Assembly (NCBI RefSeq): GCF_000284115.1
Contig: NC_017080.1
Span: 480,001-512,000 of the forward strand
Reading direction: 5' to 3'
Length of the DNA stretch: 32,000 bases
Source: Phycisphaera mikurensis NBRC 102666
GTDB lineage: Bacteria; Planctomycetota; Phycisphaerae; Phycisphaerales; Phycisphaeraceae
The stretch's first letter is position 1. Each line of letters begins with the position of its first letter. Shown one piece after another: positions 1,714-21,760 of this stretch. The position numbers were made by a program, and so were the translations under genes. A model generated the notes under the pieces. It saw only the letters and a program-made list of their open reading frames with translations, was not told where the DNA came from and made no database searches.

Positions 1714-2957
1714 ACGGGTCGCGCCCCCCGCGCGTGCTGCTGATCTCGCACGCGGCCGACCGCACCGGTGCGCCCCGCAGCTTGCTGGAGTTGCTCGGGT
1801 TCTTCTGCGTCCACACCGCGTGGGACCTGCGCGTGCTGCTGATCGAGACCGGTCCGCTCGCCCCGGCCTTCGCCGCGCTCGCTCCCACCGAGCTCCTTCA
1901 CCCGCCGCGGACCGCGGGCGGGAAAGCGCGCTCGGCCGCGCGGTCCGCGGCGTGGGCGGCGGGGTCGGGTCACCCGCGGCGGGCTTGGAAGCTGGCGACG
2001 GGCGGGCTCGGGGTCCCGTTGACGCCGGGGGAGCAAGCGGACCGAAGCGCGCACGCCCGGGCGGCCGCCGCGCGGGCGCGGGCGTGGGCGCCCGATCTCC
2101 TGTACGCGAACACGGCGGCCACGTGGCCGGCGGTGCGGCGGCTGCTGCCGCCGCAGGCCGCGGGCCGGCTGCTCGTTCACGTGCGCGAGCTCGCCTCCAC
2201 GCTCGACCGCCTCGGCGGCGCCGCGGAGCTGCTGGCGCGGGCCGATCGGGTGCTCGCCGTGTCGCCGCCGGTGCGGGCGCTGCTGGCCGGGGCGTGGGGC
2301 GTGCCGGCGGCGAAGCTCGGCGAGGGACCCGTGGCGCTGCACGACGAGGCCTTCGCGGCGGCCGAGCCCGACGCGGCGGCCTGGCCCGCCGGCGTCGGGC
2401 CACGCGTGCTGATGCTCGGCTCGGCCACCCGCCGCAAGGGGGCCGACCTCTTCGCCGCCGCGGCGGCGGCGCCCGGGTGGCCCGCGGGCACCCGCTTCCT
2501 CTGGGTGGGCGACGGGCCCGAGGCGGCGTCGCTCCGCCGCGCCGGCGGCCGGATCCGCTGGGAGGCCGCCCGCGCCGACCCGCGCCCGCTGCTCGCCGCG
2601 GCCGACCTGCTGCTGCTGAGCTCGCGCGACGACCCGTCGCCCCGCGTCGTGCCCGAGGCCGCCGCCCGGGGCGTGCCGGCCGCCTGCTTCGCGGCCTCGG
2701 GCGGGGCGGCCGGCTTCGTCGCGCCCCCCGGCGAGCCTCCCGCGGGCGTGGCGGTGCCGGCCGGGTTCGACCCGGCCGAGCTCGCCGCCGCCGCTGGCGG
2801 GCTACTCGGCGACCCGCCGGCGCTGGCCGCCGCCGGGGTCGCCGCGCGGTCCCGGGCGGATTCGGTCCGCCTCGGCGTCGTCGGCCCGCGGATCGTCGCC
2901 GAGGTGGAGGCGCTGCTGCCCCCGGTCCGCGGCCGCGTCGGAGGGGCGCGATCATGA
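1710..2957 (+). CDS. glycosyltransferase family 4 (GT-B, group 1)
   Basis: A GTG at 1710 overlaps the upstream stop. The N-terminus 'RVLLISHAADRTGAPRSLLEL' is typical of GT4. The C-terminal half has an EX7E-like region ('LLLSSRDDPSPRVVPEAAARGVPAAC'). The upstream part of the long track ORF (1131-) is Arg/Pro junk. Confidence 0.8.
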   Translation: MNGSRPPRVLLISHAADRTGAPRSLLELLGFFCVHTAWDLRVLLIETGPLAPAFAALAPTELLHPPRTAGGKARSAARSAAWAAGSGHPRRAWKLATGGLGVPLTPGEQADRSAHARAAAARARAWAPDLLYANTAATWPAVRRLLPPQAAGRLLVHVRELASTLDRLGGAAELLARADRVLAVSPPVRALLAGAWGVPAAKLGEGPVALHDEAFAAAEPDAAAWPAGVGPRVLMLGSATRRKGADLFAAAAAAPGWPAGTRFLWVGDGPEAASLRRAGGRIRWEAARADPRPLLAAADLLLLSSRDDPSPRVVPEAAARGVPAACFAASGGAAGFVAPPGEPPAGVAVPAGFDPAELAAAAGGLLGDPPALAAAGVAARSRADSVRLGVVGPRIVAEVEALLPPVRGRVGGARS

Positions 2958-3829
2958 GCCTGCCCACGCCCCCGCTGCGCTCGGCCTGGGATCGCCTCTC
3001 CGACCCGCCCCGCGTGTCGGTGGTGATGACCAGCTTCAACTACGGCCGGTTCGTGGAGGAAGCGATCCGCAGCGTCGCGCAGCAGACCCGCCTCCCCGAC
3101 GAGCTGCTCGTCGTCGACGACGGCTCCAGCGACGACTCGGTCGCGCGGATCCATGCCCTGCTCCCGACGCTGCCCTTCGCCACCCGCTTCGAGGCGACGC
3201 CCAACCGCGGCCAGGCCGCCGCGATCAACCTCGCCTGCTCCTGGGCGACGGGTGGCGTCGTGGCCTTCCTCGACAGCGACGACCTCTGGGCCCCGACGAA
3301 GCTCGAGCGGATGCTCTCGCTCATGGCCGGTCAGCCCGGCGCCGCCGTCTACCAGCACAACCTCGCCGACGGCCGCGGCGGCTTGAAGCGGCCGGTCGTC
3401 GTCTCCGGCGACCCGCAGCTGCACTGGGAGGCGCTCGGCTTCGTGAACCTGGCGACCCACGCGAGCCTGCACGACCTCTTCCTGCCGACCTCGGGTTTGG
3501 TCCTCGAACGCAGCGTGCTCGACCGCGTGCTCCCCGTTCCCGAGGCGCTGATCACCTGCCCCGACGCCTACCTCACCCGCTGCGCCCTGCGCTTCGGCCC
3601 GCTGGTCTCCTCGGCCGAGGTGCTGGGCACCTGGCGCGACCACGGCGGCAACGCCGGCCGCGGCGACCGCTTCGGCCGCCGGAGGTTCTGGCTCCCCGTG
3701 ATCGCTCCCGCGATCAACGCCTTCCACCGGCGGCACGGCAGCCCCGTCCGCTTCGGCGAGGACCGGCTCGCCGCTTGGGCGGGTCGGCTCGGGTTCGACG
3801 CAATCAAGGAGCGGCGACGCCGTGGCTGA
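2954..3829 (+). CDS. glycosyltransferase family 2
   Basis: ATG 2954 overlaps the upstream stop (ATGA). 'VSVVMTSFNYGRFVEEAIRSVAQQT...ELLVVDDGSSDDS...FLDSDD' is the canonical GT2 (GT-A, DXD) signature. Confidence 0.9.
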   Translation: MSLPTPPLRSAWDRLSDPPRVSVVMTSFNYGRFVEEAIRSVAQQTRLPDELLVVDDGSSDDSVARIHALLPTLPFATRFEATPNRGQAAAINLACSWATGGVVAFLDSDDLWAPTKLERMLSLMAGQPGAAVYQHNLADGRGGLKRPVVVSGDPQLHWEALGFVNLATHASLHDLFLPTSGLVLERSVLDRVLPVPEALITCPDAYLTRCALRFGPLVSSAEVLGTWRDHGGNAGRGDRFGRRRFWLPVIAPAINAFHRRHGSPVRFGEDRLAAWAGRLGFDAIKERRRRG

Positions 3830-10167: not shown

Positions 10168-10809
10168 ATGCGAACGACCAACGCCCGGCTCCTGGCTCTG
10201 CTCCTGCTGCTCGCCGCGGCGCCGCTGGGTGGCTGCTTGGGCGGGGCCGCGGCCGATGCCCCCGCCGACGACGCCTTCGCGACGTCGGGCAGCCCCGCGG
10301 CGGACCAGCGGGCCGAGCAGCAGATGGCCAGAACCGCGCAGGTGGAGGGCACCGAGGGCGAGGAGGACCCCGAGGAAGCCGGGCCGCAGCCCGGGGCGCG
10401 CAAGAGCCTCTACGAGCGGCTCGGCGGCTCCGCCGGCGTCGCGGCGGTGGTGGACGACGCGGTGGACCGGGCCATCGTCGACCCGCGCGTCAACGCGCAG
10501 CGGAAGGCGGTGGAGGCCGGCTGGCTGACGGCCGCGCCGCCGGCGTGGGAGCCCACGCCCGGGGCCGTCGCCCGCGTCAAGAAGCTCATCGCGCAGTTCA
10601 TCGCCACCGCCAGCGGCGGCCCCGTCGGCTACGACGGCCCGCCGATCGAGGAAGCCTTCGCCGGCCGGCGTTTCACGAACCTGGAGTTCGACGCCGCGGT
10701 GGGCAGCCTCCAGGCGAGCATGGACAAGCTGGGGCTGGCGGACCAGGAGCAGAAGGAGCTGCTGGCGGTGATGGAGACGACCCGGGAGCAGGTCGTCGAG
10801 GTCCGGTGA
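10168..10809 (+). CDS. lipoprotein with a truncated-haemoglobin (group I, 2-on-2 globin) fold lacking the canonical haem-pocket residues
   Basis: It has a lipobox 'LGGC' (C23) and an acidic linker. A domain from 'SLYERLGGSAGVAAVVDD' to 'GGPVGYDGPPIEEAFAGRRFT' aligns without gaps to M. tuberculosis HbN as I recall it. Confidence 0.7.
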   Translation: MRTTNARLLALLLLLAAAPLGGCLGGAAADAPADDAFATSGSPAADQRAEQQMARTAQVEGTEGEEDPEEAGPQPGARKSLYERLGGSAGVAAVVDDAVDRAIVDPRVNAQRKAVEAGWLTAAPPAWEPTPGAVARVKKLIAQFIATASGGPVGYDGPPIEEAFAGRRFTNLEFDAAVGSLQASMDKLGLADQEQKELLAVMETTREQVVEVR

Positions 10810-10888
10810 GCGTGGAGGCGGCCCGCCGGGTGTCGTAGGGTTTGCCGCTCCCGCTCCGCCCCCGCCCCGCCCCCCCGCGACCCCACCC

Positions 10889-12943
10889 TTGCCGAGCCCC
10901 CTGAACCTCACCCTCGCCGCGGGCGCGCTCTCCTACGAGCAGGTCACGGTTTTCCTGCTCGCCTTCGCGGTGCTGCTGGGCACGGCCCGGCTGTTCGGCG
11001 AGGTGTGCCGCAAGCTCGGCCAGCCGGTCGTGCTCGGCGAGATCCTCGCGGGCGTCGTGCTCGGGGCGACGGTGCTGGGCAGCCCCTCGCTGGCCGGGCC
11101 CGACGGCGCCAACGTGCGGCTCTACGACTGGCTCTTCCCCGTCCACGTGCTCGACGAGGACCGCGAGCCGGTGACGGTGGTGCGGGTCGCCAAAGCCCCC
11201 GACGGCCGGCCGCAGGTGCGCGAGGCGGGAGGCGACACCGCGGCGCCGGTTCCGGAGGTGGCCGCCGATGCGCCGCGGGAGGCGCCGGCGCCGACGCGGG
11301 AGGCGGAGCGGGACGCGGACCCGGTGGCCCCCGGGTCGCTCGCGGTCGTCGACGATCCCTCCGAGCACGAGTTGGACTCCGCGCCCCTGCCGGCCGACCA
11401 CCAGAAGAGCTACGACGGGGGCTACCTCGCGATGTCGATGTTCCTGCAGCTCTCGGCGGTGTTCCTGCTGCTGGTCGCGGGGCTGGAGGTCGACCTCTCG
11501 ATCGTCTGGCGGCAGGGCCGGGCGGCCCTGCTCATCAGCGTCATGAGCATGGTCGTGCCCTTCGCGCTCGGCTTCGCGCTGGCCTACGCGGTGCCGGGGA
11601 TGCTCGGCTTCGACTTCGAGTCCGGCCAGCTGATCCCGTTCGCGCTGTTCCTGGGCGTGGCGATGTCGATCACGGCGCTGCCGGTCATCGCGAAGATCCT
11701 GATGGACCTCAACTTGTTCCGCTCCGACGTGGGCATGCTGATCATGGCCTCGGCGATGGTCAACGACCTGCTCGGCTGGATCGGCTTCGCGATCGTGCTC
11801 GCGATGGTCGCCGTGCCCATCGGCGGCGGCGAGGCGGCCGGGGCGCTCGCGGCGGCGCTGCCGCTGGCCAAGACGATCGGGCTCACGCTGCTCTTCGTCG
11901 GCGGGATGCTGACCGTCGGGCGCTGGGCGGTCCACAGAGTGCTCCCCTTCGTGCAGGCCCACAGCGCCTGGCCGGGCGGCGTGCTGAGCTTCGTGCTCTG
12001 CCTGGCGCTGGTCTGCTCGGCGATCACCGAGGCGATCGGCATCCACTCGATCTTCGGGGCCTTCATCGCCGGCGTCGCGATCGGCGACAGCGCCCACCTG
12101 CGGCGGCAGACGCGGGAGCACATCGAGCAGTTCATCAGCAACATCTTCGCGCCGCTGTTCTTCGCGAGCATCGGCCTGCGGGTGAACTTCTTCGAGGGCT
12201 TCGACCTCACCGCCGTCACGCTGGTGCTGGTGATCGCGATCGCCGGCAAGCTGATCGGCTGCTGGATCGGGGCCATCTGGGCGGGGCTCTCCCGCCGCGA
12301 GTCCGCGGCCATCGGCATGGGCATGAGCGCCAGGGGGGCGATGGAGATCATCCTGGGCCAGCTCGCGCTCAACCAGGGGCTGATCACCGAGAAGCTCTTC
12401 GTCGCCATCGTCGTGATGGCGATCGTCACCTCGCTCATCGCCGGCCCGGGGATGAAGGCCATCCTGCGGATCAAGGCCCGCCGCAAGCTGACGGATCTCA
12501 TCTCCGAGAAGCTGTACGTGGACGAGCTCCGGACGGACAACGCCCGCGGCATCATTGCCGAGCTCGCCGAGCGCGCCACCGCGACGGCGGGGCTGCCGGC
12601 GGCGGAGATCGCCGAGTCGGCGTGGCGGCGCGAGCGGCTCTTCTCGACCGGGCTGCCCGGGGGCCTGGCCATCCCGCACGCCCGCCTGGCCGGCCTCTCC
12701 CGGCCCATGGTCGCCGTGGGCCGCAGCCGCGACGGCGTCGACTTCGACGCCACCGACGGCTCGAGAGCCCGGCTGATCTGCCTGCTGCTCTCGCCGGCCG
12801 AAGACCCCACGGCGCAGGTGGAGTTGCTGCGGGCGGTCGGGGAGACCTTCGCCAACAAGGAGACGCGGGCCGCGGCGCTCGACGCGACGGGCTACACCCA
12901 GTTCCGGGCGGCGCTGATCGTCGGCGAGGCCGCCGAGCACTGA
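10889..12943 (+). CDS. CPA2-family cation:proton antiporter fused to a C-terminal PTS EIIA (type 2, Ntr/Fru) domain
   Basis: It has multiple TM helices with Kef/NapA-type motifs ('GQPVVLGEILAGVVLG', 'LLLVAGLEVD', 'IFGAFIAGVAIG'). The C-terminal ~150 aa carry an EIIA-2 signature ('GLAIPHARL...VAVGRS..GVDFDATDGSRARLICLLLSP'). The TTG start at 10889 is uncertain. Confidence 0.88.
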   Translation: MPSPLNLTLAAGALSYEQVTVFLLAFAVLLGTARLFGEVCRKLGQPVVLGEILAGVVLGATVLGSPSLAGPDGANVRLYDWLFPVHVLDEDREPVTVVRVAKAPDGRPQVREAGGDTAAPVPEVAADAPREAPAPTREAERDADPVAPGSLAVVDDPSEHELDSAPLPADHQKSYDGGYLAMSMFLQLSAVFLLLVAGLEVDLSIVWRQGRAALLISVMSMVVPFALGFALAYAVPGMLGFDFESGQLIPFALFLGVAMSITALPVIAKILMDLNLFRSDVGMLIMASAMVNDLLGWIGFAIVLAMVAVPIGGGEAAGALAAALPLAKTIGLTLLFVGGMLTVGRWAVHRVLPFVQAHSAWPGGVLSFVLCLALVCSAITEAIGIHSIFGAFIAGVAIGDSAHLRRQTREHIEQFISNIFAPLFFASIGLRVNFFEGFDLTAVTLVLVIAIAGKLIGCWIGAIWAGLSRRESAAIGMGMSARGAMEIILGQLALNQGLITEKLFVAIVVMAIVTSLIAGPGMKAILRIKARRKLTDLISEKLYVDELRTDNARGIIAELAERATATAGLPAAEIAESAWRRERLFSTGLPGGLAIPHARLAGLSRPMVAVGRSRDGVDFDATDGSRARLICLLLSPAEDPTAQVELLRAVGETFANKETRAAALDATGYTQFRAALIVGEAAEH

Positions 12944-13008: not shown

Positions 13009-13824
13009 TCAAGCGGCCGCGCGGGGCCCGACCGCCTCGGCGAGGAGCCGGCCGAGCGCGGCTTCCAGCGCCTCCGCGTCCGCATCGGCCTCGCCGGCCG
13101 CGGGCTCGGCGCCGCCGGCGAGCCGGGCGCGGGTGCGCCCGACGGCGGCGCGGCAAGCCTCCACCGCCTCGGGGTCCGAGCCGGGCAGGCGCGCGAGCTG
13201 GGCGAGCGCCCCGCCGAGCGCCTCCGCCAGCCGCTCGCGGATCTCGGCGGCCTCCGCCCGCGCGGCGCTGAGCTCCGCCAGCTCCCGCTTCCGCCGCGTC
13301 ACGTCGACGTGCGTGCCGATGAAGCGGACGGCGCGGCCCTCGTGGTCCCGCGTGACGGCGCCGCGGGAGAAGATCTCCACCCAGGTGCCCGTCCGGTGCC
13401 GCATGCGGAACCCGATGACGTACTCGTCCTCACGCGTGGCGGCGATGTGCTCTTCGAACACGTTGAGGACCCGATCCCGGTCGTCGGGGTGCATGAGGTC
13501 CAGCGCGGTGGACACGGCCGATCCGAGTTCCGCGCGGTTGAGGCCGAGCATCCGCGCCCAGCCCTCGGAGTAGTGGACCCGGTCGTTCTGCAGGTCGACG
13601 TCCCAGATGCCATCGCCCGCCGCGTCCATCGCGGCCTCCAGCCGCTCGCAGCGGAAGGCGAGCTCGTTCCTCTCGGCCCGGACCTTCAGCAGCTGGACCC
13701 GCGTCGCGGCGTGGGCGCGGGCGCTGGACGGGCCTTCGGGACCGGAGGCGGGCGTGCCGGGCGGGGAAGCTTCGGGCATGCGGAGGCATCGGCCAGGCGA
13801 GGGATCACCCTTCAGCAGACCCAC
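13009..13824 (-). CDS. stand-alone PAS-domain protein flanked by coiled-coil segments
   Basis: It has a PAS_3-type pattern ('GIWDVDLQNDRVHYSEGWARMLG...LMHPDDRDRV...FRMRHRTGTWVEIFSRGAVTRDHEGRAVRFIGTHVDVT'). GTG 13824 has a GGAG 9 nt upstream. ATG 13779 is an alternative start. Confidence 0.8.
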   Translation of the reverse strand: MGLLKGDPSPGRCLRMPEASPPGTPASGPEGPSSARAHAATRVQLLKVRAERNELAFRCERLEAAMDAAGDGIWDVDLQNDRVHYSEGWARMLGLNRAELGSAVSTALDLMHPDDRDRVLNVFEEHIAATREDEYVIGFRMRHRTGTWVEIFSRGAVTRDHEGRAVRFIGTHVDVTRRKRELAELSAARAEAAEIRERLAEALGGALAQLARLPGSDPEAVEACRAAVGRTRARLAGGAEPAAGEADADAEALEAALGRLLAEAVGPRAAA

Positions 13825-13890: not shown

Positions 13891-15312
13891 TCAACCCACG
13901 CGTCGCTGCTCTGCCTCTTCCACCAGCCGGTCCACCTTCTCGACGTACGCCTTGGGCTTGGCCTTCCGCTCCAGCCCGTTGCGGTTCATGTAGCGGACCT
14001 TGCCGAAGATCTCGCGTTCGGTCCAGCCGCGGTCGTGCTGCCCGTACACCCACGCGACGTTGGCGAAGGAGTTGGGATCCCGCCCGTCGAGGAAGTACTT
14101 GTTGTTGAGGTAGAGCGTCGTCTCGAAGCCGTATTCGGGCGTGTTCGTCCACTCCAGGATCTTCTTGCCCCAGTACATCCGCATGTAGTTGTGCATGTAG
14201 CCGGTGTGGACCAGCTCCCTCTGCGCGGCGTTCCAGTACGGGTCGTGCGTGTCGGCGTCCTCGAGTTGCTGGCGGGTGTAGACGTGCTCACGCTCGTCGT
14301 CGCGGTGCTCGTCGAGCGTCTCCCGGGCGAACGCGGGCAGCTGCGAGAACTTGTCGTAATCCTCCTCGAAGTGCACGAAGTTGTGCGTGAGCTCGCGGCG
14401 GACGATCAGCTCCTCCAGGAAGTCGTCGCGGTCGTCGCCGCTGAGCTTGTCCCTCGCCGCGAGCGCGATGCGGATCGGCGAGAGGTTGCCGAAGTGCAGG
14501 TACTTGCTCATGTGGCTGACGTCGTCGGTCTGCGGCTGGTTGCGGTGGTCGCTGTAGACGCCGTTGGCGGTGGAGAGGAACCGCTCGAGCATCTCCTCGC
14601 CCGCGTCTTCGCCGCCGCGGAACAGCGGCACCGGCGGGACGCCGCCTTCACCGAAGCCCAGCCGGTCCAGCGCCTCGCCGATCTTCGCGTCGCTGGAGAG
14701 GTCCACCTCGTCGTCGGGGATCCCCATCGTGGTCGCGTCCTTCTCCAGCTCCGTCGGCTCCAGCGCCACGAGAAAGTCGTCGAGCCGTTTGTGGATCTTC
14801 GGGCGGATCGTGCGGGCGGCGTGCTCCTTCTTGTCGCTCGCGGTGCCGACGGGGACCACCACGTCGCTCTCGACCTCCTCCACCGGGACTTCCGCCTCGT
14901 TGCCCACCTCGTCCCGCCACGCCCGGTGGTCGCGGAGGTATCCGGCGTCGAGCACCACCCGGCACGCATCCTCCGCGTACCGCAGCGCCGTCTCCGCCAT
15001 GCCGCCCTCCACCACCGCGAAGCGGATCCGGCGGGCCGTCAGCTTGTCTCGCAGCGGCCCCACGCCCTGCAGCATGAAGTGCTTCTGCCGGCGGTGGGCG
15101 CCGAAGGTGTCGCCGACCAGCGGGTAGAGCACCAGCAGCCGCTTGCCCAGCCGGTTGGCGTGCTGCGCAGCGAGCTCCAGCGCGTGGTTCATCCGGCTCC
15201 GCATCGACGCCTCCATGACGTACAGCACGTAAGCCCCGTCCGCCTTTTCCTCGGCGTCGTTGAGGGCGGCGATGCGGTCGGCGTGGATGTCGGGGCTGGG
15301 CTCGCGGGGCAT
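13891..15312 (-). CDS. phr: deoxyribodipyrimidine photolyase, class II (CPD photolyase)
   Basis: The C-terminal FAD-binding region ('ELIVRRELTHNF', 'DPYWNAAQRELVHTGYMHNYMRMYWGKKILEW', 'LNNKYFLDGRDPNSFANVAWVYGQHDRGW') is diagnostic for class II. The start is ATG 15312 ('MPREPSPD'). The longer track ORF running into the 8-bp repeat is rejected. Confidence 0.93.
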   Translation of the reverse strand: MPREPSPDIHADRIAALNDAEEKADGAYVLYVMEASMRSRMNHALELAAQHANRLGKRLLVLYPLVGDTFGAHRRQKHFMLQGVGPLRDKLTARRIRFAVVEGGMAETALRYAEDACRVVLDAGYLRDHRAWRDEVGNEAEVPVEEVESDVVVPVGTASDKKEHAARTIRPKIHKRLDDFLVALEPTELEKDATTMGIPDDEVDLSSDAKIGEALDRLGFGEGGVPPVPLFRGGEDAGEEMLERFLSTANGVYSDHRNQPQTDDVSHMSKYLHFGNLSPIRIALAARDKLSGDDRDDFLEELIVRRELTHNFVHFEEDYDKFSQLPAFARETLDEHRDDEREHVYTRQQLEDADTHDPYWNAAQRELVHTGYMHNYMRMYWGKKILEWTNTPEYGFETTLYLNNKYFLDGRDPNSFANVAWVYGQHDRGWTEREIFGKVRYMNRNGLERKAKPKAYVEKVDRLVEEAEQRRVG

Positions 15313-15332: not shown

Positions 15333-15644
15333 GAGGTGGGGAGGCGGGGAAGCGGGGAAGCGGGGAAGCGGGGAAGCGGGAAAGCGGAGAAGCGGGGAAG
15401 CGGGGAAGCGGGGAAGCGAAGAAGCGAAGAAGCGGAGAAGCGAAGAAGCGAAGAAGCGAGGAAGCGAAGAAGCGAAGAAGCGGAGAAGCGGAGAAGCGGA
15501 GAAGCGGAGAAGCGGAGAAGCGAAGAAGCGAGGAAGCGAGGAAGCGAGGAAGCGGGGAAGCGGGGAAGCGGGGAAGCGGGGAAGCGGAGAAGTGAAGAAG
15601 CGAAGAGACGAAGAGGCGGAGAAGTGGGGAGGCGGGGAGGTCGG
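15333..15644. repeat. tandem array of an 8-bp unit GAAGCGRR, 39 units in unbroken register (32 well-conserved units at 15349-15604)
   Basis: I counted it unit by unit in the sequence and found no indels. The last two bases vary in blocks (GG, AA, GA, AG). It is intergenic, between the divergent photolyase and LOG genes. Confidence 0.95.
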
Positions 15645-15775
15645 CGGTGTCTTGGCGACGGCGACCGGGTTTCGCTGCTGACTCACTAGCTTCCTCTCTC
15701 ACCCCGTCGGGTCTGACCGGCTGCGGCTCGCTTCGCGGACGATGCAGCCGCGATCCGCGACGCCCGCCGCTGCGT

Positions 15776-15807
15776 CGCTTCTCCGCTTCTCCGCTTCTCC
15801 GCTTCGT
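15776..15807. repeat. inverted mini-array (CGCTTCTC x3 plus CGCTTCGT), the reverse complement of the GAAGCGGA block of the main array
   Basis: The reverse complement of 15776-15805 matches a 30-nt run inside 15477-15518 exactly. It lies 40 nt upstream of the LOG gene ATG. Confidence 0.85.
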
Positions 15808-15847
15808 GCATTCTGTGCAGGACTCGGATCCACCAAGAGGTCCCGCC

Positions 15848-16585
15848 ATGCCCGACCCCATCGACCCGCAGCTCCGCCATTCCGCCCTCGCCGAGGAGTC
15901 GTGGCGGATGTTCCGCATCCTCTCCGAGTTCGTCGACGGCATCGAGGTGATGTCCGCGGTCGGGCCCGCCGTCTCGATCTTCGGTTCCGCCCGCACGCCC
16001 GAGGACGACCCGGTCTTCGCGCAGGCGGTCGCGTGCGCCCGGAAGGTGGTCGAACGCGACTTCGCCGTGATCACCGGCGGCGGGCCGGGGATCATGACCG
16101 CCGGGAACAAGGGCGCCCACGAGGCGGGCGGGCAGAGCGTGGGGCTGAACATCAAGCTGCCGCACGAGCAAAGCGGCAATCCATACCAGAACGTCAGCCT
16201 CGACTTCCGCTACTTCTTCGTCCGGAAGGTGATGTTCGTGAAGTACGCCTGCGGCTTCATCATCTTCCCCGGCGGCTTCGGCACGCTCGACGAGCTCTTC
16301 GAGAGCCTCACGCTGATCCAGACGATGAAGATCCGCCCCTTCCCGGTGGTCTGCGTCGGCCACGACTTCTGGGACGGCCTGCTCGACTGGATCCGCGAGA
16401 CGCTCGACGAGAAGTACCGGACGATCTCGCACGCGGACCTGGACCTCATCCACGTGACCGACGACCTCGACGAGGCGGTGGCGCAGATCCAGGGCTGCTT
16501 CGACCCCGGGGAGTACGCGAAGCGGGTGGCGGAGCCGATGCCGGCCCAGATGATCGACCTCGCCCGGGCGCAGGCGCCCCGCTGA
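15848..16585 (+). CDS. LOG-family (TIGR00730) nucleotide 5'-monophosphate nucleosidase / cytokinin riboside 5'-monophosphate phosphoribohydrolase-like protein
   Basis: 'VSIFGSAR', 'ITGGGPGIMTAGNKGA', 'GLNIKLPHEQ', 'PGGFGTLDELFE' are the family signatures (GGGxGxM and PGGxGTxxE). Confidence 0.9.
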   Translation: MPDPIDPQLRHSALAEESWRMFRILSEFVDGIEVMSAVGPAVSIFGSARTPEDDPVFAQAVACARKVVERDFAVITGGGPGIMTAGNKGAHEAGGQSVGLNIKLPHEQSGNPYQNVSLDFRYFFVRKVMFVKYACGFIIFPGGFGTLDELFESLTLIQTMKIRPFPVVCVGHDFWDGLLDWIRETLDEKYRTISHADLDLIHVTDDLDEAVAQIQGCFDPGEYAKRVAEPMPAQMIDLARAQAPR

Positions 16586-16664: not shown

Positions 16665-17648
16665 TCACTCCAGCGCCGCGGCGTCGATCCCGTGGGGCCG
16701 CGTGGGCCCCGCGAGGCCTGCGGGCCGCCGCGGTCGCTGCGCCGCGGACCGCGAGCCTTCGGCGCTCGCGGAGCCGGCGGTCCGCGGCGGGGCGGCGACG
16801 CGGAGGCGGAGCCATTCGTGGGCGGGGGTGAGCACGCAGCAGGCGAGCAGCGTGAAGAGCGCGGCGGCGTGGATCGGCCCGGCCGAGGGCACGCGCTCCG
16901 CGGCGAGGGGCCAGAGCCACGCCACCGCGGCGAGCACGGGCAGCCACAGCGGCAGGGCGACCAGGTGGACGCGGGCCAGGCGGCGAAGCGGGCCGCGGAG
17001 CCCAGGGAAGAGCCGGCGGCCGAGGTCGGCGCACTCCGGGCCGGCGTGCAGCAGGAGGAACAGCAAGCCCACGGAAGCGAGCGGCGGGAGCAGCGCCGGG
17101 ACGAGGAACAGCAGGGCCAGCCGCGCCGCGGCTCGGGCGCGGCCCTTTCGCTCCCGCCAGAGGTCCGCGGCGAGCATGCCCGCCGAGGCGACGCACGCCG
17201 CGGTCGCGAGCGGGACGACCGCGCGCGGGAACGGCGCGTCGCCGCCGGCGAGCCGGACGAGCTCGTCGAACAGCGACAGCGTCGCGCCGGGGCGGAAGGC
17301 GAAGGGCAGCAGCACCAGCAAGGCGGCCTCGGCGAAGCAGCGCCGCGGCGGTTCATCCGCGACTCGGCTTGCGGCGGTGCGGCCGAAGTGCCAGACGGTC
17401 AGAGGGAGGAAGGCCAAGAGCGCCACCGCCGGCAGCAGCAAGAGCAGGGCGAGGGCGGCGCCGTCGATCGCGAGGTAGCCGGCGGCCGTGCTTCTTGGCC
17501 AGCCGGGCCCCCGCCGCGGCCGTTCGTTCAGCAGCACGGCCGCGTCGGCGGCGCCGTGCGGCATGCCCAGCGCCAGCAGGCTGAGGGCAAAGGGCAACGC
17601 GGCGATCTCCGCCGCGAAGCCCGGGCACGTCGGGGCCCAGGGGGCCAT
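16665..17648 (-). CDS. blh: Brp/Blh-family beta-carotene 15,15'-dioxygenase (retinal synthesis)
   Basis: It is a polytopic membrane protein with the Blh histidine motifs 'LGMPHGAADA' (H31) and 'VWHFG' (H87), plus later 'LLLHAG' and 'LTPAHEW'. The start is 4 nt after the rhodopsin stop. Confidence 0.8.
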   Translation of the reverse strand: MAPWAPTCPGFAAEIAALPFALSLLALGMPHGAADAAVLLNERPRRGPGWPRSTAAGYLAIDGAALALLLLLPAVALLAFLPLTVWHFGRTAASRVADEPPRRCFAEAALLVLLPFAFRPGATLSLFDELVRLAGGDAPFPRAVVPLATAACVASAGMLAADLWRERKGRARAAARLALLFLVPALLPPLASVGLLFLLLHAGPECADLGRRLFPGLRGPLRRLARVHLVALPLWLPVLAAVAWLWPLAAERVPSAGPIHAAALFTLLACCVLTPAHEWLRLRVAAPPRTAGSASAEGSRSAAQRPRRPAGLAGPTRPHGIDAAALE

Positions 17649-17652
17649 GGGC

Positions 17653-18588
17653 TCAGGCCTCCGCGTGGGCGGGCTCGCCCGAGGCGGTCAGCTTGCTCTG
17701 GTTCTCGCCGCGGGCGGCGAACTCGTCGGTCAGCTGGAAGCCGATCGTCGCGAGCAGCACGCCGTAGATCGCCTTGGAGGTGATGTCCGCGAGGGTGAAC
17801 AGGAACTGGCGGGTCACCACGCTCACCGGGCTCCACCAGAATAGCGGCTGCACCAGCGTGAAGGCGTAGACGGTCCAGGAGATCAGGAAGATCGTGCGGA
17901 TCGTCCGCAGCAGCTTGGCGCTGCGCTCGGGCAGCACCTCCAGACCGGCGTTGATCACCTGCCACACGACGACGAGGATCCACACGTAGGCGACCCACCC
18001 GATGAGGTAGTTCACCCAGAACCAGAAGGTGCCGCGGCCGGCGACGTGCTGGCCCTGCTCCCAGAAGCTGCCCAGCCACGAGCAGAAGACCATCACCAGG
18101 CCCGCGACCACGAACTGGGCGCCCCACTTGGTGATGTTGCTCCGCGCGGCGCCCGCCAGCGGCAGCAGCACCAGCATCGACAGCAGCAGGTTCGGCACGT
18201 CGATCATCCAGTTCATGTACCGGAAGCCGTTGGAGAACAGCCGGCCCTCGATGCGCTCGTACATGCCGGTCGCTTCGTTGAAGACGAAGGCGTTCTCCCA
18301 GACCGAGGACTGGTGGTAGAGGATCAGACCCGCCGAGATCGTGACGACGCAGGAGATCACCGACGAGAGCTGGAAGCGGTCGTGGCTTTTGCGGAGCGTC
18401 AGGATGAAGAAGACGAGCGCGGCCGCGAAGACGCCGTAGCCCAGCGTGAACACGTGCAGCACCGACTGGTACTGCATGGGCGTGTAGGCGAACCAGTTCG
18501 CCATGTGGTGCAGGTTCACGGCGGACTCGCCGTCGGCCAGGGGCGCAGCCGACAGGGCTTGCGCGAGCAGCGGGGAAGATGAGAGCAT
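17653..18588 (-). CDS. microbial (type I) rhodopsin of the KR2/Na+-pump clade with an N-D-S helix-C motif
   Basis: It is a 7-TM protein. 'NGFRYMNWMIDVPNLLLS' matches KR2 'NGYRYLNWLIDVPMLLFQ'. The Schiff-base lysine lies in 'LADITSKAIYGVLL' (KR2 'IADVSSKVIYGVLL'). 'FLISWTVY', 'VINAG' and 'FTLGYGV..FFILT' are all KR2-like. It has ATG and stop codons and a blh gene immediately downstream. Confidence 0.93.
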   Translation of the reverse strand: MLSSSPLLAQALSAAPLADGESAVNLHHMANWFAYTPMQYQSVLHVFTLGYGVFAAALVFFILTLRKSHDRFQLSSVISCVVTISAGLILYHQSSVWENAFVFNEATGMYERIEGRLFSNGFRYMNWMIDVPNLLLSMLVLLPLAGAARSNITKWGAQFVVAGLVMVFCSWLGSFWEQGQHVAGRGTFWFWVNYLIGWVAYVWILVVVWQVINAGLEVLPERSAKLLRTIRTIFLISWTVYAFTLVQPLFWWSPVSVVTRQFLFTLADITSKAIYGVLLATIGFQLTDEFAARGENQSKLTASGEPAHAEA

Positions 18589-18675
18589 GAGCGTTTTCCG
18601 GAGCGTCTTCGTGCTTCACCGCGGGCCGCCTCTCTCCGCGAGGCGCCGGGCGATGGTCGACGCTAGCCGGCAGCA

Positions 18676-20130
18676 TCAGCCGGATTGCGCGACCGCCCGA
18701 TCTTTCGCTCCGCCCCGCAGCGGCGCCGCCAGCAACGCGAGCACGCCGACCACCTCCAGCCGGCCCACCCACATGAGCGCGACGAGCACGACCCGGCAGG
18801 CCGCCGGCGCCTCGGCGTCGGTGAAGCCCGAGCTCAGGCCGACGGTGCCCAGCGCCGACGCCGCCTCGAAGGCGGCATCGACCCAGGTCACACCCGCGGG
18901 GGAGGCGAAGCCCAGCGCCAGCGTGCCCAACGCGAACGCCGCCGCGTAGAGCCCGGCGAGCCGCCGGGTGGCGGCGACGGGCTCGGCCAGGCGGTGGCCG
19001 GCGTCCGGCTTGCCCGCGGCCGCCCGCACCAGCCGCCGCAGCCGTGCGAGCTTCAGGCCGCCGCCGGTGGAGCCGGCCGAGGCGCCCACCAGCATCGCCA
19101 GCGCGAGCGGGAGCGCCGCGATCGGGAGCAGCCCGCCGCCGCCCTCGCGGACCGTGAAGCCGGCGGTGGCGAGGCCGCTCGCCGCCTCGAAGAAGGCCGG
19201 CCAGGCCGGCACACCTGAGGCCCACACGAGCAGGAACAGCGGCAGCAAGGCCGCCGCGAACCAGCGTGCCTGCGGGTCGATCGCCAGCGCCGCCGGCCGC
19301 CGCCCGAACGTCATCAGCCGCAGGGTCCCGAAGCCGACCGCGCCCGCGAGCATCGTGACGCACGCCACGGCCTGCGCCGCGGTTCCGAAGGCCGCGAGGC
19401 TGTCGGCCGAGGTCGAGAAGCCCCCGGTCGCGGCCGCCGTCTGCGCGTGGTTCGCCGCGTCCCAGGCGCTCATGCCCGCGAGGTAGAGGCCCGCGAAGGA
19501 CAGCAGCGTCAGACCGCCGTAGACGATCCATGTCCGCTCGAGCAGCCGCCGCAGCGAGGGGCCCCGCTTCTCCGCCTCGCCGCTGCCGAGCTCGCCGTCC
19601 GCGGCCTCGTCGTCCCCGTCCTCGGGACCCGCGCGCTCCACGCACGCCAGCGTCAACGCGAAGTAGAGGATGCCCACGCCGCCGATCCACTGCAGCGTGC
19701 TGCGCCACCACTGCAGCGACAGCGGGAGCTCGCGCGGGTCGCCCGCCACGGAGAGGCCGGTGCTGGTCAGCCCGCTGGCCGACTCGAACAGCGCGTTGAG
19801 CGGGCCGAAGGCGCCGCCCGCCGCGAGGAAGGGAGCCGCGCACAGCAGCGAGGCCACCGCCCAAGCCGCCGCGAGCGTCGGCCCCGACGCGTGGTGCGGC
19901 GACCGCTCCCCCCGCCGTCCGTACGCCCAGCCGAGGGCGCCACCCGCCATGGGGACCAGGAGCCCCGCCGCCACCGGCAGCGCCCCCTCGGCCCACGCGA
20001 TCGCGAGCGTCGGCGTCGCCACGAGCGTTAGGGGGCCCAACGCCAGCCCGAGCGTCCGCGTGCACACCCCGGCCCCGGGGGATCCCACGCCTGATGGATT
20101 CAAAGCCGGGTTCCTTTCCGATCGCCGCAC
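18676..20130 (-). CDS. trkH: TrkH/KtrB-family cation (K+/Na+) transporter subunit
   Basis: It has four pore-loop glycine signatures ('GLTSTGLS', 'AATGGFS', 'LATAGFT', 'LGTVGLS') and an intramembrane gating loop 'GSTGGGLKLAR'. The GTG start at 20130 is uncertain, and the N-terminal ~25 aa may not be translated. Confidence 0.85.
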   Translation of the reverse strand: MRRSERNPALNPSGVGSPGAGVCTRTLGLALGPLTLVATPTLAIAWAEGALPVAAGLLVPMAGGALGWAYGRRGERSPHHASGPTLAAAWAVASLLCAAPFLAAGGAFGPLNALFESASGLTSTGLSVAGDPRELPLSLQWWRSTLQWIGGVGILYFALTLACVERAGPEDGDDEAADGELGSGEAEKRGPSLRRLLERTWIVYGGLTLLSFAGLYLAGMSAWDAANHAQTAAATGGFSTSADSLAAFGTAAQAVACVTMLAGAVGFGTLRLMTFGRRPAALAIDPQARWFAAALLPLFLLVWASGVPAWPAFFEAASGLATAGFTVREGGGGLLPIAALPLALAMLVGASAGSTGGGLKLARLRRLVRAAAGKPDAGHRLAEPVAATRRLAGLYAAAFALGTLALGFASPAGVTWVDAAFEAASALGTVGLSSGFTDAEAPAACRVVLVALMWVGRLEVVGVLALLAAPLRGGAKDRAVAQSG

Positions 20131-20437
20131 CCGTCAGCCGGCGAGGCTTCCGAGCGTACCCCCCGCGGTCCCGCGTCGCCGCGCCCCGCCCCGGCTCAGC
20201 CCCGGCCACCGCACAGCTGCGATGGCTCCGCGTGGAGGAGCGGCGGGTGGACCCGAGAGGAACGGCCGCCTCCGGCCGCGTGGGTCTGCGGCCGCGGCGT
20301 CTGCTCCGCGGCGCGGCCCCGGGTGGCGGTGTGCCGGCGGTGCGGGTTCTGCGGGTCGTGCGAGCGTGGAGCCCGGATCTCGCGGCCGGCGGAGGATCGC
20401 GTTGGCCGGCCTCGAAAGCCGCGACAAGCCTTGTCGG

Positions 20438-21760
20438 ATGCGCCGCCGCCTCCTCGCCTCGCCCCTCCGCCTCGCCGCCGCCGCGCTGCTCGGGGCTGCG
20501 GTCGCTCTGCCGGGCGTCGGCGTCGCCGCGGCCGACACGCTCGTGCTGACCGGCGGGCGCACGCTGCAGGGCAGGGTGCTGCAGGAGGACGAGCGGGGCG
20601 TGGTCTTCGAGAGCTTCCGGCACGGAGCGAGGCTGCGGCAGTCGGTGCCCGCTGCGCAGATCGCCTCGATCGCCCGGACCGCCCGCGAAGGCCTCGCGGT
20701 CGCGGTCATCCCGCTGATCGGCGGCGTCGGGCTGGGGACGGGCACGCCCGACGAGCCCGCCGCGACGGCGGCCGGCCTGGAGCGGGCGCTCCGCGTGGCG
20801 CAGGAGGAGCGGGCGGCCCGCATCGTCCTGGTCGTCGACAGCCCCGGCGGCCGCATCGACGAGATGCAGCGGATGCTCGCGCTGCTCCTGGATCCGGAGC
20901 TTCCGCCGGTGACCGCGTACGCGCGGCGGGCCCTGTCCGCCGCCGCGGTGATCGCGCTCGCCTGCGACGAGCTCGTGGTGGCGCCGGAGGCGGTGGTGGG
21001 GGCGGCCGTGCCCCTGCGACTCGGCCCTGAGGGCACGCCGCAGAACATCGAAGCCAAGTACCGCTCCGGCTACGACGCGCTGCTGCGGCAGGTCGCCCGG
21101 CGCGCCGGGCGCGACCCGGACCTGCTCATGGCGATGGCCGACGAGCGGGTCGTGCTCTACGAAGAGCCGGCGCCCCGCGGGCCGCGGCTGACCGGCCGGC
21201 CGGCCGGCGCGGTCTTCAAGGCCGCCGGCGAGATCCTCACGCTCACCGCCGCCGAGGCGGTGCGCCTGGGCGTCGCCCGGGCCGGCGCGGCGAGCGTGGC
21301 GGCGCTGCCCGCGGCGGTCGGCTGGGAAGCGTGGCACAGCGTCGGCCATCGGGCCTGGGAGGAGGCCGGCCGCGTGAACGCCGCCGAGGCCGACGCCCTG
21401 GAGCGGGCGGCCCGCCGCGCCGCCGCGGAGGTGCTGCGGCAGCGCCTCTCGCCCGCGCTGGCGGAGGCCGAGGCCGCGCTCGCGGAGCGGGAGCGAGCCA
21501 TCGCCGGCCTCCACGCCGAGCGCGAACGCGTCGACGCGTGGGCCCGCGCGCAGCTGGCGGCGCACCCGGCGCCGCCGATGAGCCGCCGCCGCTCGGCGGC
21601 CGCCGAACGCAGCGCGTCGTTGCGCGCGGACATCCGCCTGCAGCACGGAGACGCCGCGGCACGCATCGACGCCGCCTTGGTCGAGCTGACCGCGCAGCGG
21701 GACGCGCTGCGGCAGCAAATCGCCGAGGCCCTCGAAGCGCTCGACGGCCTCCGCGGCTGA
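20438..21760 (+). CDS. secreted ClpP-class (NfeD-like / S49-type) serine protease homologue with a C-terminal coiled coil
   Basis: It has a signal peptide ('LRLAAAALLGAAVALPGVGVAAA'). 'VIPLIGGV...IVLVVDSPGGRIDEMQRM...AAAVIALACDELVVAPEAVVGAAVP' follows the NfeD N-terminal/ClpP-fold pattern. The C-terminal ~130 aa are Ala/Glu/Arg-rich heptad-like sequence. Confidence 0.7.
   Translation: MRRRLLASPLRLAAAALLGAAVALPGVGVAAADTLVLTGGRTLQGRVLQEDERGVVFESFRHGARLRQSVPAAQIASIARTAREGLAVAVIPLIGGVGLGTGTPDEPAATAAGLERALRVAQEERAARIVLVVDSPGGRIDEMQRMLALLLDPELPPVTAYARRALSAAAVIALACDELVVAPEAVVGAAVPLRLGPEGTPQNIEAKYRSGYDALLRQVARRAGRDPDLLMAMADERVVLYEEPAPRGPRLTGRPAGAVFKAAGEILTLTAAEAVRLGVARAGAASVAALPAAVGWEAWHSVGHRAWEEAGRVNAAEADALERAARRAAAEVLRQRLSPALAEAEAALAERERAIAGLHAERERVDAWARAQLAAHPAPPMSRRRSAAAERSASLRADIRLQHGDAAARIDAALVELTAQRDALRQQIAEALEALDGLRG

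Follow-up and report, generated by a model that had tools for sequence, protein, structure and literature searches.

Why should a gene for a potassium uptake protein lie directly upstream of a gene for a putative sodium-pumping rhodopsin? The question is raised by a 32,000-nucleotide stretch of the genome of the marine planctomycete Phycisphaera mikurensis NBRC 102666 (contig NC_017080.1, positions 480,001 to 512,000 of the forward strand; hereafter, the window), in which genes for a TrkH-type K+ transporter, a rhodopsin with an Asn-Asp-Ser (NDS) motif and a Blh-family enzyme follow one another. The physiological role of Na+-pumping rhodopsins (NaRs) is unsettled, and the recurrent link to K+ uptake described here points to a light-driven exchange of Na+ for K+. 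With a probability that we put at about 0.55, the three genes would constitute one operon encoding a light-powered Na+/K+ exchange module.

The open reading frame (ORF) listing of the window verifies three co-directional genes on the minus strand, at the coordinates and with the spacers of 87 and 4 nucleotides (nt) that the initial annotation had given. From upstream to downstream, and with the basis of each assignment in brackets, the features of the locus are the following.

20131 to 20437, no strand assigned: intergenic region between the divergent TrkH and NfeD-like genes (presumed location of the operon promoter)
18676 to 20130, minus strand: TrkH-type K+ transporter or channel subunit (Pfam, NCBIfam, alignment to 3pjz)
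18589 to 18675, minus strand: TrkH-rhodopsin spacer of 87 nt (terminator scan, folding, Rfam)
17653 to 18588, minus strand: rhodopsin of the NaR/KR2 clade with the NDS motif (Pfam, KR2 alignment)
16665 to 17648, minus strand: Blh/Brp-family beta-carotene 15,15'-dioxygenase (TIGR03753, PF15461, conserved His)
15647 to 16585, plus strand: LOG/'lysine decarboxylase'-family gene, convergent with blh, outside the module and forming its downstream boundary (ORF listing, domain match)

The G+C content at third codon positions is 0.94-0.97 in the TrkH, rhodopsin and Blh frames (genome G+C approximately 74%), and all three frames are therefore supported as coding. Together they form an isolated directon, because the genes that bound it at both ends, the LOG-family gene and an NfeD-like gene, run on the opposite strand. 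The latter, upstream of TrkH, has an ATG at 20438 and carries the NfeD1b_N domain in the ORF at 20501-21760.

A terminator in the 87-nt spacer, as the initial annotation had pointed out, would speak against a shared transcript. The terminator scan found no terminator-like hairpin with a T-run in this spacer; the two weak matches obtained in the region both lie inside coding sequence and equal in number those in shuffled sequence. The minimum free energy of folding of the spacer was no better than that of its shuffles (z-score 0.29), and nothing unusual was seen in the region at 20131 to 20437 (z-score -0.27). Neither the spacer nor this 5' region matched Rfam, and a riboswitch, such as a cyclic di-AMP element, was not found in either by Rfam or folding. 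A sigma-70 promoter scan returned 0 sites in real and shuffled sequence alike and is uninformative for a GC-rich planctomycete. In the orthologous locus L003 the corresponding spacer measures 67 nt and aligns weakly with that of the window. Co-transcription of the TrkH, rhodopsin and Blh genes is likely, because the gaps are short, the TrkH-rhodopsin spacer is without a terminator-like site and the genes overlap in relatives.

The rhodopsin ORF encodes 311 amino acids (aa), identical to a deposited P. mikurensis protein labelled 'bacteriorhodopsin', and its residues 45-282 match the Bac_rhodopsin profile (PF01036, 4.3e-24). Among solved structures it is closest to the KR2 Na+ pumps (2.8e-45); ErNaR (3.0e-40) comes next and Cl- pumps after that, and the protein belongs to the Na+-pump (KR2/NDQ) clade, as had been proposed. 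In the alignment to KR2, N126, D130 and S137 correspond to the motif residues N112, D116 and Q123, the first two being located in the helix C segment RYMNWMIDVP. The retinal Lys (K272, KR2 K255) and the counterion (D268, KR2 D251) are retained, as are R123 (R109), S85 (S70), S271 (S254) and R260 (R243). Residues N126, D130, D268, K272, R123, S85 and R260 are invariant across 18 aligned clade members.

At the third motif position, the Gln of the NDQ motif is replaced by Ser, and two positions of the ion-uptake cavity also depart from the NaR pattern, with S76 for KR2 N61 and A280 for KR2 G263. Within the clade, Asn or Ser is found at the N61 position and Gly, Ala or Ser at the G263 position, and the third motif residue is Ser or Thr in the nearest homologues and Gln in more distant ones. 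Among representative relatives, this residue is almost always Gln, NDS and NDT variants being rare; the nearest database relatives with NDQ share 47-50% identity with the window rhodopsin. The P. mikurensis protein was named in 2013 among the 'N...Q' rhodopsins, without further study (PMC3587595), but in our alignment the third motif residue is Ser. A description of NDS or NDT motif variants was not found in the literature, with subscription journals thinly covered.

Mutants of KR2 offer a guide to the effect of this replacement. Q123A retains Na+ pumping at lower efficiency and Q123V shows mixed, competing Na+/H+ pumping (PMC4600240). Given the activity of Q123A, Ser at this position is compatible with Na+ pumping; the competition seen in Q123V suggests that it may nonetheless affect kinetics or selectivity. 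We infer that Na+ is the ion moved by the NDS variant. Another departure from the canonical motif is seen in P0161 from the representative library, which is 48% identical to the window rhodopsin and has an NTT motif (RYVNWAITVPMLLMT), in which Asp116 is replaced by Thr in the manner of Cl- pumps and Gln123 likewise by Thr; a description of this variant was likewise not found.

The longest ORF of the transporter gene comprises 484 aa from a GTG start, and is 100% identical to the P. mikurensis 'potassium transporter TrkG'. A start at GTG 20088 is more likely than one at 20130, because the protein deposited at NCBI has 470 aa and begins there; the L003 orthologue also fits this start. The product matches PF02386 (2.4e-41) and TIGR00933 (9.4e-56), the latter with 189.6 bits against a curated cut-off of 331 bits. 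Among solved structures it is nearest to Vibrio TrkH (3pjz, 1.2e-28, residues 27-469 aligned), and the match to KtrB is weaker and covers residues 225-459 only (3.5e-9). An N-terminal D0 segment is followed by four M1-P-M2 repeats, with glycine in all four pore loops of the family alignment (filter segments STG, TGG, TAG and TVG), and the intramembrane gate loop of the third repeat, STGGGLK, is present, GASAGSTGGGLKLAR aligning with TrkH GGCAGSTGGGMKV. Judged by these alignments, the window transporter is TrkH-type and not KtrB-type. All of the linked transporters described below retain the four filter glycines and the GGG loop (alignment), as would be expected of K+-conducting Trk/Ktr proteins. 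An acidic insertion, PEDGDDEAADGELGSGEAEKRG, follows the first pore repeat of the window protein (residues ~165-195, window 19450-19530); it is common to a Phycisphaerae-like TrkH subfamily and absent from the KtrB-type partners.

The third gene begins 4 nt past the rhodopsin stop codon and encodes 327 aa. It scores above the 95.25-bit cut-off of TIGR03753 (1.1e-37, 130 bits) and matches PF15461 (2.3e-28), and H31, H87, H201 and H277, the presumed iron ligands, are invariant in six sequences. No crt genes were found in the domain annotation of the 32-kb window.

Is the association with a K+ transporter peculiar to this genome? The contigs of rhodopsin homologues, and then those of TrkH homologues, were searched, together with genome-collection and metagenome scans. 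The genome-collection scan with the single rhodopsin protein gave two distant loci, L001 and L002, and 80 more came from the metagenome scan, for which the clade alignment served as query; all loci were searched with hidden Markov models built here. The arrangements found, with rhodopsin identities to the window protein, are as follows.

L003-L006: TrkH, rhodopsin and Blh in this order, with gaps of 67 and 3 nt; rhodopsin 74% identical, NDT
L007: TrkH, an insertion sequence (IS) element, then rhodopsin; rhodopsin 73% identical, NDS, C-terminus garbled; without blh
L016/L017/L031 and L021/L022/L047 (clade B, metagenomic), and L071: rhodopsin, Blh and KtrB in this order, with overlaps of 4-20 nt
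L024: CrtY-Blh fusion, rhodopsin and TrkH in this order, with a 4-nt overlap; rhodopsin 31% identical, NDQ; reached via TrkH P0028
L066: rhodopsin and TrkH-family gene in convergent arrangement
L001 (uncultured Erythrobacter) and L002 (Aurantiacibacter sediminis): KtrB and NaR genes divergent; other flanks differ
L008-L013: no transporter; NDQ sister clades, 47-50% identical
L019/L020 (the same clade B): rhodopsin and Blh only
L023: TrkH P0027, 52% identical to the window TrkH, behind a resistance-nodulation-division (RND) efflux operon; no rhodopsin

The clade-B rhodopsins of L016 and L021 are 36-38% identical to that of the window and have the NDQ motif and a long loop insertion. Those of the L001/L002 type belong to the ErNaR clade (32-33% identity to the window rhodopsin in the best tblastn segment), and the L001 protein matches ErNaR at 3.9e-151, ErNaR being an experimentally demonstrated light-driven Na+ pump (PMC11006869). 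The partner transporters of clade B and Erythrobacter are KtrB-type (7zpr/7zp9, ~1e-55, no TrkH match), and those of L021 and L001 are ~26% identical to the window TrkH. TrkH P0028 of L024, on a 1-Mb contig, is 47% identical to it. A neighbour-joining tree places the window TrkH within a Phycisphaerae-like subfamily made up of linked members and one unlinked member, with the KtrB-type proteins outside.

Counted together, no fewer than five rhodopsin lineages show the transporter linkage; the gene orders number four or more, two transporter subfamilies are involved and at least two phyla are represented. Such diversity speaks for selection on the pairing rather than for inherited synteny. The genetic coupling of a Na+-pump-clade rhodopsin with a Trk/Ktr-type transporter, which the initial annotation had suggested for this one locus together with a survey of homologues for an adjacent trkH or ktrB, thus extends beyond close relatives, the adjacency being conserved from 74% down to 31% rhodopsin identity. 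Two other accounts were rejected: shared ancestry among close Phycisphaerae as the sole cause, given the KtrB-type partners, the other gene orders and the occurrence in Alphaproteobacteria too, and a linkage specific to the altered NDS filter, given that NDQ proteins (clade B, L024 and the ErNaR-like ones) are also linked.

For the survey statistics, the rhodopsins were dereplicated at 90% and only clusters with adequate flanks were counted (n ~25). A TrkH-family gene lies at most 3 kb from the rhodopsin in 10 of these ~25 clusters, and in L024 in addition. TrkH is the most recurrent genuine neighbour family in the surveyed loci. In total, 17 TrkH-family matches were found within 3 kb of an NaR-clade rhodopsin (399 kb surveyed), and 0 in the 302 kb of flanks beyond 3 kb. 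With 2-5 TrkH-family genes per 3-4 Mb taken as a generous background, at least 10 dereplicated matches would arise by chance with a Poisson probability of <1e-8; when only the five independent arrangements are counted, the value is at most ~6e-4. Chance adjacency was rejected on the basis of this enrichment and of the internal control beyond 3 kb.

Several further features of these loci were recorded. Genes for RND tripartite systems (OEP, HlyD-type adaptor and AcrB-type pump) occur in L001 (6836-12874), L003 (2-3483), L007 (1-5244) and L023 (1-6004); they adjoin the transporter-rhodopsin pair in the Erythrobacter contig and stand beside TrkH in the three Phycisphaerae-like contigs. The genes for AcrB and TrkH overlap by 4 nt in L023, and over ~1000 residues the L001 pump has 39.5% identity to its counterparts in L007 and L023. 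RND efflux genes may be a third recurrent partner; none adjoins the window TrkH. The IS element of L007 (6975-8912; HTH and DDE_3 transposase) separates TrkH from the NDS rhodopsin, whose frame continues with unrelated sequence directly after the retinal Lys and may represent a decaying copy or an assembly error. The lycopene cyclase-Blh fusion of L024 (2580-4934, 784 aa) lies upstream of the NDQ rhodopsin, itself upstream of TrkH; at the KR2 L74 position this rhodopsin has Glu, as in ErNaR-like subgroup 2. L021 (4748-5752) and also L022 encode a voltage-gated-type cation channel of 334 aa (Ion_trans and Ion_trans_2) ~760 nt upstream of the rhodopsin-Blh-KtrB operon. Near the KtrB/NaR pair of L002, a Na+:alanine symporter gene (1814-3568, minus strand) encodes a possible consumer of the sodium gradient.

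How might the three products work together? NaRs export Na+ electrogenically, and K+ uptake through the channel-like TrkH and KtrB depends on the membrane potential, Vibrio KtrAB (Ktr) additionally requiring Na+. In the module proposed here, Blh would cleave beta-carotene and so supply retinal, and the rhodopsin would expel Na+ electrogenically in the light. The inside-negative potential arising from Na+ export would drive K+ inward through the channel-like TrkH. A path for K+ influx would be useful to the pump because an electrogenic pump moves little charge without counter-ion flow; K+ entry would discharge the potential, and the pump could keep exporting Na+ in bulk. The net effect of such electrical coupling would be that cytoplasmic Na+ is swapped for K+ at the expense of light. 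In seawater such an exchange may help cells to keep their ion balance and turgor, and the K+ gradient could also serve as an energy store.

A number of observations weigh against this proposal. The pairing is optional, since a transporter is missing from most NaR lineages, among them L008-L013 (NDQ sister clades) and L019/L020 of clade B. The TrkH of L023 has no rhodopsin, and the synteny of the window and its close relatives (clade A) may be partly inherited context. The window TrkH falls below the NCBIfam curated cut-offs and is hence a divergent family member. Domain annotation of the 32-kb window and of all linked loci revealed no gene with a TrkA_N/RCK domain (TrkA/KtrA). Finally, ion selectivity is uncertain, because the uptake path has S137, S76 and A280 where KR2 has other residues, and the behaviour of Q123V counts in the same direction.

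Among the alternatives, one that we consider unlikely but worth keeping in view assigns the rhodopsin a recycling role, in which, instead of supplying membrane potential, it would remove Na+ brought in together with K+ by a Na+-dependent or Na+-coupled Trk/Ktr uptake system, or would maintain the sodium-motive force for it. K+ uptake by KtrB of Vibrio alginolyticus requires Na+, and it is to this KtrB that the KtrB-type proteins of three linked lineages are most similar; moreover, the Na+:alanine symporter near the L002 pair and a Na+/H+ exchanger 5.7 kb away in the window would fit a sodium economy of this kind. The window protein, however, is TrkH-type and not KtrB-type, and Na+ coupling of TrkH is not established. 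Such recycling and the exchange module are compatible and not mutually exclusive, and sequence cannot separate the two.

It is possible, if again rather doubtful, that the genes are held together only by co-regulation, for example by salinity or light, by inherited synteny, or by a chance insertion of rhodopsin-blh cassettes beside trkH, with no special electrical or ionic interplay of their products. Rhodopsin-blh cassettes are mobile, and the IS element in L007, the occurrence of the same TrkH subfamily without rhodopsin behind the RND operon of L023 and the many NaRs without a partner are in line with such an explanation. It accounts less readily for two transporter subfamilies in four gene orders and at least two phyla, for the frequent stop/start overlaps, which imply translational coupling, and for the absence of TrkH-family matches from the flanks beyond 3 kb.

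A third alternative, raised in the initial annotation, ascribes the pairing to the altered filter residues: S137, S76 and A280 would make the pump carry K+ (or H+) itself, and TrkH would balance or recycle the flux. This seems to us quite improbable. The positions concerned do matter in KR2, where N61 and G263 line the ion-uptake cavity, mutations there shift selectivity and the G263F and S254A variants pump K+ (PMC6457933), and both the competing Na+/H+ pumping of Q123V and the rarity of NDS/NDT among representative relatives could be cited in its favour. Altered residues are nevertheless unlikely to explain the pairing, since canonical NDQ rhodopsins (clade B, L024 and ErNaR-like Erythrobacter proteins) are linked too. 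The K+-pumping KR2 mutants, moreover, are bulky at position 263, where the window protein has Ala, the equivalent of S254 is conserved as S271, and outward K+ pumping beside a K+ uptake system would constitute a futile cycle.

Least probable is a direct partnership in which the rhodopsin gates an RCK-less TrkH or KtrB physically or allosterically to give light-gated K+ uptake, for although a TrkA/KtrA gene is absent at every linked locus and gene overlaps suggest stoichiometric co-production, two unrelated transporter subfamilies and 31%-identical rhodopsins would each need compatible interfaces, and the RCK absence covers the loci only, as RCK genes may lie elsewhere in the genomes. Equally far-fetched at present is the broader notion of a dedicated two-protein machine, repeatedly evolved with TrkH or KtrB, in which the pump would control the K+ channel through a complex or through local potential and Na+ and so give light-gated K+ accumulation; if true, this would be a bacterial light-powered functional analogue of the Na+/K+-ATPase.

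The remaining neighbours in the window were also inspected. The Na+/H+ exchanger (PF00999), a further Na+-handling protein of the neighbourhood, is encoded on the plus strand at 10772-12943, 5.7 kb from blh, and carries a fused PTS EIIA-2 regulatory domain at its C-terminus. Just downstream of the module lie a DNA photolyase gene (13891-15201, minus strand; DNA_photolyase and FAD_binding_7) and a gene for a PAS-domain protein (13009-13824, minus strand), which together with the rhodopsin make up a loose light-related gene cluster. Between the photolyase and LOG genes, at 15344-15635, is an octanucleotide tandem repeat, GCGGAGAA, of 36.5 copies with 90% match, which reads in the ORF listings as ASPLLRF/GEAEKRRS-type peptide repeats.

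For the exchange module proposed here, ion homeostasis, turgor and a K+ 'battery' are the candidate roles. Experimental entry points are offered by the cultured P. mikurensis NBRC 102666 and by ErNaR, a characterised pump of solved structure with a near relative encoded beside KtrB. Selectivity studies could make use of the NDS/NDT variants that nature provides at the Gln123 gate, and optogenetic control of K+ might benefit from matched pairs of pump and transporter.

How, then, does this locus compare with known systems? In terms of the pump, the window rhodopsin has all the equivalents of N112, D116, R109, S70, D251, K255, S254 and R243 found in KR2 and ErNaR, but differs from both in having Ser (Thr in the nearest homologues) for Gln123, a long N-terminal extension and an identity to characterised pumps of well below 50%, and from KR2 also in having Arg for D102, Ser for N61 and Ala for G263. 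It further differs in probably sharing an operon with a K+ transporter, for which no report was found for KR2 or ErNaR. The initial annotation had regarded a Trk/Ktr gene beside a Na+-pump-clade rhodopsin as undescribed, and no description of the TrkH/KtrB-rhodopsin linkage was found in the full-text literature, including the ErNaR paper, in a search that covered subscription journals thinly.

The transporter resembles TrkH of the Vibrio parahaemolyticus TrkH/TrkA system and KtrB of the KtrAB systems of V. alginolyticus and B. subtilis in its fold, which aligns end to end with 3pjz, its filter glycines and its gate loop; unlike these, it has no adjacent RCK gene, has an acidic insertion and is encoded with a rhodopsin. 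As in the rhodopsin-blh (crt) clusters of proteorhodopsins and xanthorhodopsins, Blh follows 4 nt downstream, and one relative has a lycopene-cyclase-Blh fusion; the difference here is an ion transporter as a conserved third member, with no crt genes in the window.

A parallel in logic is Halobacterium, in which the potential generated by bacteriorhodopsin and halorhodopsin drives K+ uniport and the K+ gradient serves as an energy store. The proposed combination of an electrogenic light-driven pump with electrophoretic K+ uptake would be alike in both, but the Halobacterium pumps move H+ or Cl-, and to our knowledge the pump and K+ transporter genes there do not form one operon, whereas here a Na+-type pump is genetically linked to its putative partner. 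The components of the P. mikurensis locus are all of known kinds, and it is their conserved three-gene combination that constitutes the new element.

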